Virus record (IMG/VR): IMGVR_UViG_3300047510_001751
Span: 64,001 to 128,000 of that record
DNA: 64,000 bases
Strand: one strand, 5' to 3'
Source: a virus
Shown here: one piece after another, positions 2,989 to 36,280 of the stretch
How the letters are laid out: each line of letters starts with the position of its first letter
How positions within the stretch are numbered: position 1 is the first letter of the stretch
The notes under the pieces: generated by a model
The model's input: the letters and a program-made list of their open reading frames with translations, nothing else
Told to the model about the DNA's origin: nothing
The model's database searches: none
Program-made: the position numbers and the translations under genes

Positions 2989-3005
2989 TTTTGGGTTGTT
3001 TTAAA

Positions 3006-3092
3006 CGGAGGGTGGGCGAGTCGAACGCCCAAGGGCTTTAACACCTCAACTGTTTTCAAGACAGGTTCCGTCGCCAATCGGATTGACCCTCC
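3006..3092 (-). tRNA. trnS: tRNA-Ser (anticodon UGA)
   Basis: Minus strand GGAGGGT...ACCCTCC acceptor stem, anticodon loop CT-TGA-AA, long variable arm, T arm GGGCG-TTCGACT-CGCCC; no encoded CCA; one mismatch at top of anticodon stem. Confidence 0.93.
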
Positions 3093-3120
3093 AGTATTAA
3101 TGGGGCATTTGCCCCAATAT

Positions 3121-29607: not shown

Positions 29608-31785
29608 TCAGCGACCAACTACTTCAGCAAACGAAACACCAGTCTTAGTAGCCGTTAAGGTTACGGTAATGTAGTTGATAGAACGGGTTGGCTTGATATA
29701 AATTTCAGCAACAAATTCGTTTCTATCAATAACATCTGGAGTATTGTTTGAGTCATCACAAACAACCAGGAAGTCGGTTACACCTCTTCTTGCTTGAACT
29801 TCACTCATATAGGAGTTTAGAGCACTAGCAAAAGATGCTCTTGTTGTCTCATCATTCTGTTCGAATAAAACTTGCTTGGCAAGTCCTTCGGCTCTCTTTT
29901 GTACATTTAGGAATAAACGACGAACGTTAATTCTGTCAAAAGCAGATGGAGAAGCGAGAGCAGTCTTGTCTCCAAATAGAGTTACGCCAGCACCAGGGAA
30001 AGAAACAATAGGATTGACTCTTGCCTGATATAGCTCATCTCTATCAGCTTTATTTGGGTTGTAAGCAAGTTTAACAGCGTTTCTTAGTGAACCTCTGTTA
30101 ACACCAGCAGGTGAATACCAATCATCGAGAGTAGATGAAGTAGCTACACATAGACCAGCAATATCTCCATTACATGGAATGTAGCGATACTTGTCGTTGA
30201 AACGATCATAGAAATACTTATAACCGCTATCAAATACACCATATGATGTAGAAGCTAAACCATTAAAGAAATTAATCGTGTTGGTTTTTTGTTGTGATGT
30301 TGAAAGAGCACCACCTGTGCCAACTTGATTTCCTTTGTGTGGAGATACAAATGCTACACAATCTTTTCTTGAAGAAGCAATAGAAAGAACTTTAGCAGCT
30401 TTAGCTTTAGTTTCTGACTCAAGCCCCATTGATCCTCCCATGAGAACGAAATCAATTACGGATTCTTCGGTATCTAAGAATAAATCGTAGGCGTTTCCGA
30501 TTTCTCCATTATCATAAACGTAATCATCAGTACCACCAGAAAGATCGACTGTTGAAAGACCATCACGGGTAAAAGCAGTATTTGCCATTTCAATTGAATC
30601 ATCACCCCAATCAATGCCTACGGCAATTCCAGTGTAAGCATAAGATGATTGTTCGTTTAGAACTTCTTTGTAATATGTTTTTGCTCCTTCTGTGCTTCTA
30701 CCATCGGAAAGTTTTGAAAGATATGTAAATCTTTCTACGATAGTATTAGCAGCACCCGAAATAGCCCCAGTAGTATCAATAATAACTACGTGAAGTTCGT
30801 CGTTAGAAATACCTCTGTCGGAAGCAAATTGTGAAGTACCTGGACGAGGACCAATTGCTCCTAAAGTTAATCCAGTAGCTCCAATTTCAGCTGTAGAATA
30901 CCAATCTTTAACAGCACTTACTCCTGTTTCATCATCTAAAATTGTAGCAACCGTTACAATAATATCAGAACCACCGCCAGTAGCAGCACCAGCAAGAGTA
31001 ATTGTATCTCCAATTTCGTATCCATTTCCAGCAGTTAACAGAGTTACTGTTACAGCGCCACCTACGCCAGCACCAGCATCAGCAACAACAACCTGGAAAG
31101 AAGCACCGCCAGCATGAGCAGCAGGAGTATAAGTTCCAGGAGTTCTACCAGCTTCGGTTACTCCATCATGAGTAAATGTAGCAATTGGATCTTCTGTTTC
31201 AGTGATGCTATCACCAGCATTGATCAAACCACCCAATACGTTGTTAACTGTTACTTCTCTAGTTACCGAATTGTATAAACCTACTAAAGCGGTTTTTCCA
31301 GAAGCAAAAGTTAAAGTAGATCCTAAAACAGGAGTAACATCAGGAGCTTTATCAAAAGTAAGAACTTGATCGTAACCTCTATCGACTAAAACTACTTTAA
31401 CCGAATTGCCCCATGTACCAGCTGTCTTAGCAACAAAAGTTTCTGATGAACCTGTGCCAGCTTCCCAATCAAGATCGTTTCTTACTAGAACTCCAGTACC
31501 ACTAGCAGAAGCATTTTTAACATTGGTAGCAGCACGAGCTACAGCTAGTCTGCCGCCATAACCAAGAAACTCAGAAGCTACGTACCAATCTTCAGCATTG
31601 GCATCAGCAGGCTTTCCGAAAACATCAATTAGTTGTTTTTGGCTGCTGACATTTACAATTTGATTAATAGGTCCTTTTTGGAATGTCGAAGCAAATGCGG
31701 CGGTAATCTGCTGAGCACCAGTGATTACAGCATTTGATAAATCACGCTCCTTAATTACAATACCAGGCGAGACTTGACTTGCCAT
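29608..31785 (-). CDS. gp18: Tail sheath protein (T4 gp18) with an inserted surface module
   Basis: SPGIVIKERD, WYSPAG.NRG, GDKT...SAFDRINVRRLF, IKPTRSINYI. Confidence 0.97.
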   Translation of the reverse strand: MASQVSPGIVIKERDLSNAVITGAQQITAAFASTFQKGPINQIVNVSSQKQLIDVFGKPADANAEDWYVASEFLGYGGRLAVARAATNVKNASASGTGVLVRNDLDWEAGTGSSETFVAKTAGTWGNSVKVVLVDRGYDQVLTFDKAPDVTPVLGSTLTFASGKTALVGLYNSVTREVTVNNVLGGLINAGDSITETEDPIATFTHDGVTEAGRTPGTYTPAAHAGGASFQVVVADAGAGVGGAVTVTLLTAGNGYEIGDTITLAGAATGGGSDIIVTVATILDDETGVSAVKDWYSTAEIGATGLTLGAIGPRPGTSQFASDRGISNDELHVVIIDTTGAISGAANTIVERFTYLSKLSDGRSTEGAKTYYKEVLNEQSSYAYTGIAVGIDWGDDSIEMANTAFTRDGLSTVDLSGGTDDYVYDNGEIGNAYDLFLDTEESVIDFVLMGGSMGLESETKAKAAKVLSIASSRKDCVAFVSPHKGNQVGTGGALSTSQQKTNTINFFNGLASTSYGVFDSGYKYFYDRFNDKYRYIPCNGDIAGLCVATSSTLDDWYSPAGVNRGSLRNAVKLAYNPNKADRDELYQARVNPIVSFPGAGVTLFGDKTALASPSAFDRINVRRLFLNVQKRAEGLAKQVLFEQNDETTRASFASALNSYMSEVQARRGVTDFLVVCDDSNNTPDVIDRNEFVAEIYIKPTRSINYITVTLTATKTGVSFAEVVGR

Positions 31786-31836: not shown

Positions 31837-33483
31837 TCAATAGTTCCACATGTATGAAACATCTTCTTGAGTTTCTCCATACCACACACTACCATCCTCT
31901 ACAAAACCTTCATCCCCTTCCAAACCAGTTGTGATAAATCCAAATGGTGCCATATCTTGTTCAATCTGATTTTTTTGCTCCTCGTAGATTCTTTTACGAA
32001 CATCATTGTCCGTCATCTCTTTAAAATAATCTTGAACAGCCAACCAAGAAAAGATAACTAAACACATTACGAGGTCATCATGAAATCCATCGTCAGCTTC
32101 AAACGATTGCTTTTTCTGAATAAATGTGGTAAGCTCAGATATGATTTCGTAATCTCTAAACAAGAGTTTATCATCTTCGATCATCTGCTTCAGGTTTTGA
32201 CAACCAACTTTTTTCACAGTGATTGACATCTTAATACCAAGTTGAGTTTTGTTGCCAGAAAAACCTTGACCAACAATCTGTCCAGCACGACCTCTCATTG
32301 AACACATTAATACGTTAGGATATTCTAGATCGTAATTAAGAATAGAAGCAACCTGATCACCAACGTCATTTACTTCACACAACACATAGGCATTATTATA
32401 TGCTCGGGCAACGTCGTTAATAACGTTGGGAAATAGCATAGGCTTGATTTCGTTGTTTCTATATTTTCCTACGATTTTGTATGGGACTGTTGTAATATCA
32501 AATATAATAAAAGCAGAATAATCGCCTCCAATACCTCGGCTAACGTCTGCTGTAATAATGTATTCAGATTTTGAATTTGGAGTTTCATAAATGTCAAGAC
32601 CTTTATTAGAACTAATTGGTGTGTCAAATACAAGTGTTCTTAATTTAGAAGCAGCAATAAGAGTATCAACCGATCCTAAAAATTCACACTCAAATTCCTG
32701 AGTGAACTGTCGTTGAGAAGTATTTTTAATTGTTTCTTCTTTCCACTTAGCATCACGACCAGGAACTTCAGACCAATGAACCTCAGTCCAGATATAATTA
32801 TTCCTTTGGTTTTGAGCGTCTACCCACAACTTATAGAAGTGGTTCATACCATATGGGGTAGAAATAATAATAACTTTAGTTTTTTGTCCCGATGAAATGG
32901 TAGGATATACAGACGAGAAGAAATCTTCGGCAATGTGATTTGGAACGAAAGCAAATTCGTCCAAGAAAATAATGTTAAATGACATTCCTCGTACAGCAGA
33001 TGCTGACGTTGAGGCAGCCATAATCTTAGAACCATTCTCTAGTTCCATAGAACCTTTGTTCCACGAGAGAACACCCTGTTGTAACCACTTAGGAAGATTC
33101 TCGTATGCTGTCTGTAATCTTCCTAGTAGGTCACGAGCAGTGGATGCTTTGTTTGCTAGAATACCAATGTTGGAACTATCATTAAACAAAGCATAGTGAA
33201 GCAGATAGGAAACCACAACAGTAGATTTCCCTGTCTGTCTTGGAAGTTTAGCAATGTTGAATCTGTTTTCGTGAAACTTTTTGACTAATTCTTTCTGGAA
33301 GTCATACATCCTAAAAGGAATCAAACCCTCGTCAACCTGAACAATTTTGACATAATTCAGGGCAAAGTATACGGGATCTTCTTTACATTTTAAATATTCT
33401 TTAATTTCTTCTTTAGTCCACTGGTGGGCAACGTTCGCTTTCTTTAAAAGCGGATTGCCCAAATAAATCTGATCACTACTCAT
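31837..33483 (-). CDS. gp17: Terminase large subunit (T4 gp17)
   Basis: PRQTGKST, IFLDEFAF, ISTPYG, ADVSRG.GGDYS, HDDLVM. Confidence 0.97.
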   Translation of the reverse strand: MSSDQIYLGNPLLKKANVAHQWTKEEIKEYLKCKEDPVYFALNYVKIVQVDEGLIPFRMYDFQKELVKKFHENRFNIAKLPRQTGKSTVVVSYLLHYALFNDSSNIGILANKASTARDLLGRLQTAYENLPKWLQQGVLSWNKGSMELENGSKIMAASTSASAVRGMSFNIIFLDEFAFVPNHIAEDFFSSVYPTISSGQKTKVIIISTPYGMNHFYKLWVDAQNQRNNYIWTEVHWSEVPGRDAKWKEETIKNTSQRQFTQEFECEFLGSVDTLIAASKLRTLVFDTPISSNKGLDIYETPNSKSEYIITADVSRGIGGDYSAFIIFDITTVPYKIVGKYRNNEIKPMLFPNVINDVARAYNNAYVLCEVNDVGDQVASILNYDLEYPNVLMCSMRGRAGQIVGQGFSGNKTQLGIKMSITVKKVGCQNLKQMIEDDKLLFRDYEIISELTTFIQKKQSFEADDGFHDDLVMCLVIFSWLAVQDYFKEMTDNDVRKRIYEEQKNQIEQDMAPFGFITTGLEGDEGFVEDGSVWYGETQEDVSYMWNY

Positions 33484-33721
33484 TCAAACCCCTTTGTATA
33501 TCTTTATCAATAGCATCCATATTATTTAACCTGTTCTCCCATCCTTTACCATCAGTGGTTCCTTTACGAGGATTGATACAAGTATCATCGCCAAACTTGT
33601 CACAAACAAGAGATGCTAATTCTGATTCATCGCCTTTTTTGTTTGTGCCAGTCCAGAAATGTTGCCCGCCGATCCACTGAGCCCCACACTTGGGACATGC
33701 TTTGGTATCCATGAGTATCAC
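33476..33721 (-). CDS. Small Cys-rich hypothetical protein (CPKC...C...C)
   Basis: ORF track; four Cys; 3' end overlaps the gp17 start. Confidence 0.75.
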   Translation of the reverse strand: MILMDTKACPKCGAQWIGGQHFWTGTNKKGDESELASLVCDKFGDDTCINPRKGTTDGKGWENRLNNMDAIDKDIQRGLNE

Positions 33722-33736
33722 CTTAAGACGGTTAAT

Positions 33737-33778
33737 ATTATATTTAGAATACAGTGTTCACGCTGTAACAATAGTTAC
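33737..33778 (-). promoter_or_regulatory. NtcA-activated class II promoter (GTA-N8-TAC-N22-TATAAT)
   Basis: Palindromic GTAAC-TATT-GTTAC box at 33765-33778, exactly 22 nt, then TATAAT at 33737-33742. Confidence 0.8.
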
Positions 33779-33799
33779 TGAAGTTATGTTAAGAAATCC

Positions 33800-35048: not shown

Positions 35049-35471
35049 TTATCCTTCGGGTAAATTTTTGCCCATTTCTTTAATCATCTTTTGAAGATCA
35101 GCAGTGCTACCAACAAACATTGTATTGTTAACTGTAGTTGGTCCAGCACCTTTCATTGGAGCATCGAGGTCTTTCATTTTCTTCTGAAGATCAATTAATT
35201 TATCAGTCATGTCTGAGACCTGCTTCATAGCGTTCACAGCGACTTCAAACGCTCGGGGGTGCCCAGACTCCTGAGCAACCTCTAAAGCCCCTTGTACAGC
35301 CTCCTGGCCCTTCTCTATGAGGTCGTAGAGTTGACCACGAGTATATTCGTAATCTTTTTCTGGATCATCTTTTTTGGCAGGAGGTATTTTTTCTGATTTA
35401 ACAATTTCTGTTGTTTCAGTTTCAACTTCAATATCAAATATTTGTTCCATATTTTTTTCAAATTCGTTCAT
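35049..35471 (-). CDS. gp16: Terminase small subunit (T4 gp16)
   Basis: DYEYTRGQLY.LIEKGQEA...A.ES.HPRAFEV...NNT.FVGSTADLQK. Confidence 0.93.
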   Translation of the reverse strand: MNEFEKNMEQIFDIEVETETTEIVKSEKIPPAKKDDPEKDYEYTRGQLYDLIEKGQEAVQGALEVAQESGHPRAFEVAVNAMKQVSDMTDKLIDLQKKMKDLDAPMKGAGPTTVNNTMFVGSTADLQKMIKEMGKNLPEG

Positions 35472-36280
35472 AGTAGATCAATAGTTCCATTAAATCCAAA
35501 GTCATCGTCTGGCATCACAAAAGCATCATCTGCTGAAGTAATTACTCCATCTTCATTATAATCTTCTAATGCTTTTGGACTATACGAGAATCTAGCATTA
35601 CGCTTACTTTCTTGTAGATCGCCAACAGTTTCGTAAATAATAGCCTTACGGATGATGTCAGCCTGATTGAAAGGACCATAGATATATGACTTGGCAGTAA
35701 ATTGAAAAGTCCAAGTAATTGATCTACGGTTAGCGTACTCACCATCCCATGAATCATCAAGATCAATATTGTTTAATACTATAGCAACGTCTTTCTTTTC
35801 ATCCATGTCTGGAATGAAATTAATTGTGACATTGAAATTTGGTTGGAAGTATGGTAGAATCTGTTCGACAATCTGTAGTCCATCATCCTGTGACTTCACT
35901 AGAACTCCTAGTTCAAAATCAATATTGTAAGGAACAGGAACATACTGAACTCTTACTTCATTGCCATTATCAGCAACAACAGTTCTGTATTTTTGAATAG
36001 GACTTACTTTTCTGGCACTATCATAATTAATATTAGTCATCTCGAAATACATACGAGGTAATCTCATATACTCGTATGGTGCTCCTGGAGTAGGATCTGG
36101 GTTCTGCTCGATACGAGCCAAGAACTTATCCTTTGGACCATAAGCAAGAGGAACTTTCTGGACCTCAAGAACTTCTTTGGTTTGAGGATCTTTTCTTTGA
36201 ACCTCGATATTGTTGAATAGTGTTCCGAAGCCAACTACAGTTTTTCGTATTGCTTCGTTATAAAAATGAGTTCCTAACAT
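35468..36280 (-). CDS. gp15: Tail sheath stabiliser/completion protein (T4 gp15)
   Basis: FY..AIRKTVVGFGTLFNNI, VPLAYGPKDKFL, QIVEQILPYFQP. Confidence 0.95.
   Translation of the reverse strand: MLGTHFYNEAIRKTVVGFGTLFNNIEVQRKDPQTKEVLEVQKVPLAYGPKDKFLARIEQNPDPTPGAPYEYMRLPRMYFEMTNINYDSARKVSPIQKYRTVVADNGNEVRVQYVPVPYNIDFELGVLVKSQDDGLQIVEQILPYFQPNFNVTINFIPDMDEKKDVAIVLNNIDLDDSWDGEYANRRSITWTFQFTAKSYIYGPFNQADIIRKAIIYETVGDLQESKRNARFSYSPKALEDYNEDGVITSADDAFVMPDDDFGFNGTIDLL

Follow-up and report, generated by a model that had tools for sequence, protein, structure and literature searches.

Class II promoters of NtcA, the nitrogen regulator of cyanobacteria, carry the box GTA-N8-TAC (N represents any base) about 22 nucleotides (nt) upstream of a TAN3T -10 element and centred at -41.5, and late promoters of T4-type phages, which depend on gp55/gp33/gp45 transcription, need no upstream element. 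Traits of both are found in a promoter on the minus strand of the viral DNA analysed here, a stretch of 64,000 nt (positions 64,001 to 128,000 of IMG/VR record IMGVR_UViG_3300047510_001751; hereafter the window), where it precedes the gene of a small four-cysteine protein and gp17, the gene of the terminase large subunit. For each of the 16 cyano-T4 genomes studied, 1-16 NtcA promoters have been predicted, and a 2-oxoglutarate/NtcA model was proposed for these phages (Sullivan et al. 2010, PMC3037559). Later papers apply the same site prediction, and no experimental test of a cyanophage NtcA promoter was found in the literature. The idea of NtcA promoters in cyanophages is thus not new, having been put forward in 2010. 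According to motifs from chromatin immunoprecipitation sequencing (ChIP-seq), the sites of NtcA activation are concentrated between -41 and -44, with G1, T2 and C14 as dominant positions (PMC5714215).

The initial annotation regarded the window promoter as NtcA-activated, so that the phage would read the nitrogen status of its host. The sequence-level part of this claim stands, while the orthologous loci conserve a pair of GTWAC pentamers (W represents A or T) and not the triplets contacted by NtcA. The element is tentatively read as an activator-type operator, centred near -41, for a factor other than NtcA, a reading to which we give a probability of about 0.45.

A composite promoter between gp16 and gp17

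By DNA and protein searches, the window is assigned to a T4-like cyanomyovirus (Kyanoviridae) whose closest isolate is Synechococcus phage DSL-LC02 (Dishui Lake), S-PM2 and S-RIM32 being more distant. It is part of a 128.8-kb contig with an estimated completeness of 66%, and all genes called in the window lie on the minus strand. The promoter and the gene that follows it consist of these features:

33778-33765, minus strand: upstream operator GTAAC-TATT-GTTAC (GTAACTATTGTTAC), two GTWAC pentamers that fit GTA-N8-TAC
33755-33759, minus strand: 5-6 nt past the operator, a third conserved block with the sequence GAACA (consensus AAACA)
33747-33741, minus strand: CTAAATA, a T4-type late box overlapping TATAAT
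33742-33737, minus strand: TATAAT, a sigma-70-type -10 hexamer, 22 nt past the operator
33718-33733, minus strand: conserved leader AACCGTCTTAAGGTGA, including the ribosome-binding site AAGGTGA (33724-33718)
33476-33712, minus strand: gene of the 78-aa four-cysteine protein (T4-LIKE GC 392, PHROG 484), start ATG at 33712

The triplets GTA (33778-33776) and TAC (33767-33765) are separated by 8 bases, the gap to TATAAT is exactly 22 nt (33764-33743), and the centre of the operator, reckoned with the -10 at 33742-33737, lies at about -41.5. The palindrome, the gap and the -10 are confirmed base for base, and all the sequence features of a canonical class II NtcA promoter are present, as is the placement inside the packaging module, where the promoter sits between gp16 and gp17. 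A -35 hexamer is lacking, and a promoter scan gives no minus-strand -35/-10 pair at this site. The late-type box described in the initial annotation was likewise recovered, and since it overlaps the -10, dual control is plausible. Further downstream, the leader block ACCGTCTYAAGGT is common to the window, DSL-LC02 and many IMG/VR relatives, and may be a translational control element. Base pairing of TTACC with GGTAA across the ribosome-binding site is possible in DSL-LC02-like loci (e.g. L001, around 2512-2528) and weak in the window.

Taken alone, the window site is only moderately unlikely to be due to chance. The exact form with N22 and TATAAT is present in 0.55% of shuffles, and a loose box with TAN3T at 20-24 nt in about 47%. 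GTA-N8-TAC as such occurs 30 times in the window vs 12.1 times in dinucleotide shuffles (2.5-fold), with 29 of the 30 copies inside open reading frames (ORFs) and the operator as the only intergenic copy. Because this excess lies in coding sequence, it is uninformative on regulation; a codon or dipeptide effect is presumably its cause. The intergenic regions of the whole contig hold 4 copies vs 3.05 expected (P = 0.36), and a genome-wide NtcA regulon in this phage was rejected for this lack of enrichment. A general promoter class was rejected as well, as the pair GTAAC-N4-6-GTWAC is as frequent as in the reversed control, with no enrichment in the contig, in S-PM2 or in two near-complete relatives. 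The contig holds a single noncoding copy of the pair, and the combination of the right pentamer with TATAAT is rare, which together with the lack of enrichment points to a locus-specific operator, present once per genome. The element is considered more than chance because it is conserved in relatives.

Conservation of the pentamers and their spacing

The promoter was compared in 80 IMG/VR loci that encode the small protein at 68-96% identity, and in a marine set of 80 S-PM2-like loci together with S-RIM2, Syn9 and S-RIM8. Two kinds of upstream region occur besides the marine form. One group has GTAAC-N4-GT(T/A)AC, 17 variable bases and (C/A)TAAATA, and in the second, DSL-LC02-like group TTGAC(A/G), 16 nt and TATAAT come immediately after GTGTAAATTGTAAC, hence a full sigma-70 promoter. 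GT-N10-AC with TAN3T at exactly 22 nt is found in about 40 of 59 distinct relatives. A right pentamer 20-23 nt from a -10 occurs in 73 distinct promoter segments, which divide by pentamer spacing and right half into N5/GTAAC (25), N4/GTAAC (16), N4/GTTAC (9), N5/GTTAC (5), N6 (1) and segments with a weak left half (17). The spacing between the pentamers and the distance to the -10 add up to 26 in 52 of the 56 promoters with a good left pentamer, and owing to this constant sum the left pentamer keeps a distance of 36 nt to the -10.

In the logo of 30 distinct promoters with 4-nt spacing (N4), the left pentamer reads G80 T97 A93 A77 C80 (per cent), the end of the spacer T83 T90, and the right pentamer G100 T100 W(A57/T43) A100 C100; the AAACA block is also retained (A100 A90 C87 A83). 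The inner bases TTGT are thereby 83-100% conserved. At box position 12, where TAC has its T, 57% of these promoters have A and 43% have T, with at least 7 changes of state on a tree built from the small ORF and the start of gp17. The common N4 variant of the box is GTAACTATTGTAAC. Marine relatives carry the pentamers 5 nt apart, or 6 nt in one clade, the N5 form (GTAACATATTGTAAC) being equivalent to GTA-N9-(T/A)AC and the N6 form having N10 after GTA. Examples are the S-PM2 clade with CGTAACATATTGTAACAC ... TATAAT, S-RIM2 with GTAAC-ATACG-GTAAC-N22-TATAAT, and Syn9 and S-RIM8 with GTAAT-N5-GTAGC-N22. There the element precedes a small transmembrane ORF (GC 836) and GC 392. Judged by this conservation, the element is functional, and the composite promoter, with both a -10 and a late box, has a genuine conserved operator.

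The late box itself could account for part of the pattern. On the coding strand, (C/A)TAAATA occurs in most intergenic regions of the module (CTAAATA, 8 minus/0 plus; ATAAATA, 20/2), and in the T4-like phage Aeh1 a late promoter with the sequence CTAAATA has been described (PMC1524935). The TATAAT half of the motif is thus partly explained. As in T4-type late promoters (TATAAATA), the CTAAATA of the promoter lies on the coding strand a short way ahead of a gene of the late module, and similar boxes occupy about 20 other intergenic sites of the window. It is improbable, though, that the locus is a late promoter only, in which CTAAATA is used by the phage late machinery and the pentamers are kept for DNA shape, as an UP-like element or as remnants of linkage or recombination. 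Such an explanation agrees with the box at 33747-33741 being an instance of the dominant strand-specific intergenic motif of the structural module, with late promoters requiring nothing upstream, and with TATAAT as a possible by-product of CTAAATA plus AT-rich downstream sequence. However, the late box is missing from DSL-LC02-like and marine relatives, in which TATAAT and the pentamers persist, the right pentamer shows 100% conservation against free variation in the 17 nt up to the late box, the distance to the -10 is fixed, and the left pentamer is degraded in promoters that have a -35 hexamer (see below). T4-type late promoters have no conserved upstream operator, whereas the window promoter combines a two-pentamer element at fixed distance with a sigma-70-type -10.

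A further late-like sequence, TTAAATA, occupies 33523-33529 (minus strand) inside the small ORF, in its 3' part (codons R-L-N-N-M), and the gp17 ATG follows about 40 nt downstream. A late promoter within the ORF that serves gp17 is one possibility, plain coding sequence the other.

Inverted repeats specific to lineages flank the -10 of the same promoter, with arms that differ between lineages and remain complementary. These are GCTACAT-N12-ATGTAGC in marine loci (L091, L098 and further loci of the S-PM2 type, about 260 nt ahead of the small ORF), GGATACA-N19-TGTATCC in L068-type loci (L068-L073), and TGAACA...TGTTCA followed by a T-run in L017-type loci (L017, L031). They hint at a second operator or at a structure in read-through RNA; the window promoter has no clear counterpart of them.

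NtcA, RpaB and other candidate binders

With class II NtcA promoters and the predicted NtcA promoters of cyano-T4 phages, the window site shares consensus, spacing, position, the lack of a -35 hexamer and the intergenic location (the criterion of 2010). Host NtcA, acting with 2-oxoglutarate under nitrogen limitation, would bind GTA-N8-TAC at -41.5 and raise the small cysteine protein and gp17. Such control is possible and, for the window's sub-lineage, a serious alternative, if on balance unlikely, and it is not the reading best supported by the sequences compared. In its favour are the perfect GTA-N8-TAC-N22-TATAAT without a -35, the rarity of that exact form in shuffles, the retention of GT-N10-AC at 22 nt in most distinct relatives, the agreement with the -41 to -44 activation zone and with the dominant G1, T2 and C14 (PMC5714215), and the NtcA promoters predicted in every one of the 16 genomes (PMC3037559).

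The same pentamer form also adjoins a glutamine riboswitch in two phages, which speaks for NtcA and offers an internal control. The sequence GTAACAAATGTTAC, a perfect GTA-N8-TAC, lies as follows:

S-PM2 (AJ630128, 141700-142900; L164): box at 559-572 and riboswitch at about 618-665 within the segment
Relative G002 (L165): box at 608-621 and riboswitch at 644-689

The riboswitch matches Rfam RF01739 with 36.4 bits in G002. S-PM2 has the same RNA sequence, scoring below threshold, and a TTGACT-17-TATAAT promoter between box and aptamer. The control set comprised 80 cyanophage contigs with the glutamine aptamer, giving 77 distinct upstream regions, among which strict GTA-N8-TAC is present in 36 (vs 3.8% of shuffles), mostly 78-91 nt upstream of the matched aptamer segment. 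The spacing in these boxes is always 8, the inner bases vary (GTATC..., GTAAC..., ...ATAC, ...TTAC), and T12 is retained in about 85% by our own count from the list. To the extent that sequence can tell, they show how a selected NtcA box looks in cyanophages. The element upstream of gp17 differs from them on each point, as its inner bases are fixed, its position 12 is free and its spacing is variable. In the window's contig, 66% complete, no glutamine riboswitch was found.

The orthologues of the window promoter keep neither the TAC triplet nor the N8 spacing, contrary to the conservation of box and spacing that an NtcA site would lead one to expect. Position 12 is A in the majority of N4 promoters and toggles repeatedly, as against its retention beside riboswitches, and TTGT is conserved although NtcA has no need of inner bases. 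A dimeric protein of the CRP family, such as NtcA, is not expected to accept pentamer spacings of N5 or N6, at which both pentamers are kept in the marine orthologues. Further points against NtcA are that intergenic GTA-N8-TAC is not enriched in this genome, that the -10 half is also accounted for by the late box, that nothing links the downstream genes to nitrogen, and that the small protein lacks a host homologue.

The factor for which selection has maintained the site across the family is thus probably not NtcA, as A or T is tolerated at position 12 and the pentamers stand 4, 5 or 6 nt apart. For the preferred reading, a DNA-binding protein at about -41 would recruit host RNA polymerase in class II fashion, the promoter would drive the 78-aa protein, and gp17 would be expressed by read-through and translational coupling. 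Through the overlapping CTAAATA, the same unit would also be open to transcription by the late machinery of the phage (gp55/gp33). Among candidate binders, the marine form points to a host response regulator of the RpaB/HLR1 kind; the other candidate, a protein encoded by the phage and co-evolving with its site, would explain the spacing variants. The boxes of cyanobacterial LexA and of the Pho system, as generally known, were dropped, since half-site or period does not fit.

HLR1 consists of two octamer direct repeats, (G/T)TTACA(T/A)(T/A), 2 nt apart, and upstream sites of this kind activate, being centred at about -51 (PMC6525291). In reverse complement, the marine consensus reads GTTACAAT-AT-GTTACGAT and matches 15 of the 16 specified HLR1 positions; like HLR1 sites, it precedes a promoter that lacks a -35 hexamer and has two GTTAC(A)-type repeats at a distance of one helical turn. 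That the element is an HLR1 site of the host response regulator RpaB, by which light or redox would tune the operon, is a special case of an operator for another factor and is decidedly improbable. Beyond the pentamers, a single further informative position matches. The HLR1 repeat pattern is matched in the marine relatives and not in the window, whose lineage has a 9-bp period and whose own copy is palindromic and placed nearer to the start site than typical activating HLR1 sites.

Several observations weigh against an operator for a factor other than NtcA. The resemblance to HLR1 fails in the window with its repeat period of 9 instead of 10 and its inverted halves, the centre near -44 also being nearer to the start site than about -51. 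At the textbook position, the window itself has a perfect NtcA box. The most prevalent positions in the NtcA ChIP-seq motifs (PMC5714215), which are G1, T2, A13 and C14, are best kept in the N4 lineage, and position 12 has only medium prevalence there, so that GTA-N8-AAC could be a weaker NtcA site. The element is absent in S-N03, S-CAM7, S-PRM1, ACG-2014f, S-SM1, P-SSM4 and P-TIM40, which represent several genera. Finally, the left pentamer is kept in 0 of 14 promoters with at least a 5/6 match to the -35 hexamer vs 50 of 54 with at most 3/6, a contrast that comprises only 2-3 independent events and is not significant in a phylogenetically independent test; it would suit a class II activator site no longer needed in promoters with a -35 hexamer, and is suggestive only.

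As the operator of the window's sub-lineage equals the NtcA consensus, incidental or additional binding of NtcA is possible. A bolder variant would have one operator serve two regulators, a 1-bp change of spacing rewiring the packaging promoter from NtcA and nitrogen in the N4 (DSL-LC02-like) lineage to RpaB and light or redox in the N5 (marine, direct-repeat) lineage; on the present comparison this is a long shot.

The small protein, its neighbourhood and the meaning of the operator

The initial annotation listed an 81-aa ORF with the pattern CPKC...C...C whose end overlaps the start of gp17. The cysteine-containing ORF and the overlap are confirmed, the stop TAG (33478-33476) overlapping the gp17 ATG (33483-33481) by 8 nt, and the length is revised to a probable 78 aa. 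The listed ORF starts from GTG at 33721; the start at ATG 33712 is more probable, because all relatives begin with M-(D/N)-T-K and AAGGTGA precedes it, as seen in an alignment of 43 relatives and in the annotation of DSL-LC02. In the same alignment, C6, C9, C37, C45, W13, H18 and W20 are invariant. The protein matches PHROG 484 (E = 3.6e-27), a family without an assigned function, and 442 phage records by tblastn, and its orthologues S-PM2 p099, P-SSM4 074 and S-SM1 116 are annotated as GC 392. Pfam gives sub-threshold zinc-finger matches only, AlphaFold gives no confident fold (pLDDT 66), Foldseek against PDB no match with E < 5, and a PDB profile search nothing below E = 0.16. The nearest atlas clusters are all viral. 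The proposed comparison with nitrogen-regulated host genes thus returned viruses only and no host homologue, and a host-derived, nitrogen-regulated small protein was rejected, as the neighbours are all viral and no Pfam family applies.

The packaging interval and its flanks carry the following genes:

35468-36280, minus strand: 270-aa ORF occupying the gp15 position of S-PM2
35049-35471, minus strand: gp16, terminase small subunit (PF11053, 1.6e-9), the upstream end of the packaging interval
Between gp16 and the promoter, minus strand: three ORFs without assigned function (83, 239 and 100 aa)
31837-33483, minus strand: gp17, terminase large subunit (Terminase_6N, 6e-26; Terminase_6C, 2.8e-12)
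29608-31785, minus strand: 725-aa ORF occupying the position of the tail sheath gene of DSL-LC02

In Syn9, S-RIM2 and S-SM1, the GC 392 gene, usually with the small transmembrane ORF in front, heads a host-derived metabolic island (petE/ptoX/gnd) between gp16 and gp17 and is not adjacent to gp17. The coupling to gp17 is for this reason lineage-specific, and in those marine lineages the conserved promoter may drive the island.

Elsewhere in the window, ARAGORN calls a tRNA-Ser (anticodon TGA) at 3005-3093 on the minus strand, for which Rfam scores tRNA-Sec exactly at threshold (47.1 vs 47 bits). An ordinary phage-borne tRNA-Ser with a long arm is its most likely identity.

For the annotation of cyanophages, a perfect GTA-N8-TAC in an intergenic region is insufficient to call an NtcA site. 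The same viruses provide both a well-behaved control, the boxes of the riboswitch cassettes, and a look-alike, a well-defined operator of 14-16 bp with natural spacing variants. If a host regulator controls the unit that contains the terminase large subunit, DNA packaging would be tied to host physiology, and if the two-regulator variant were true, cyanophage lineages would couple the small cysteine protein and the terminase to different host signals.

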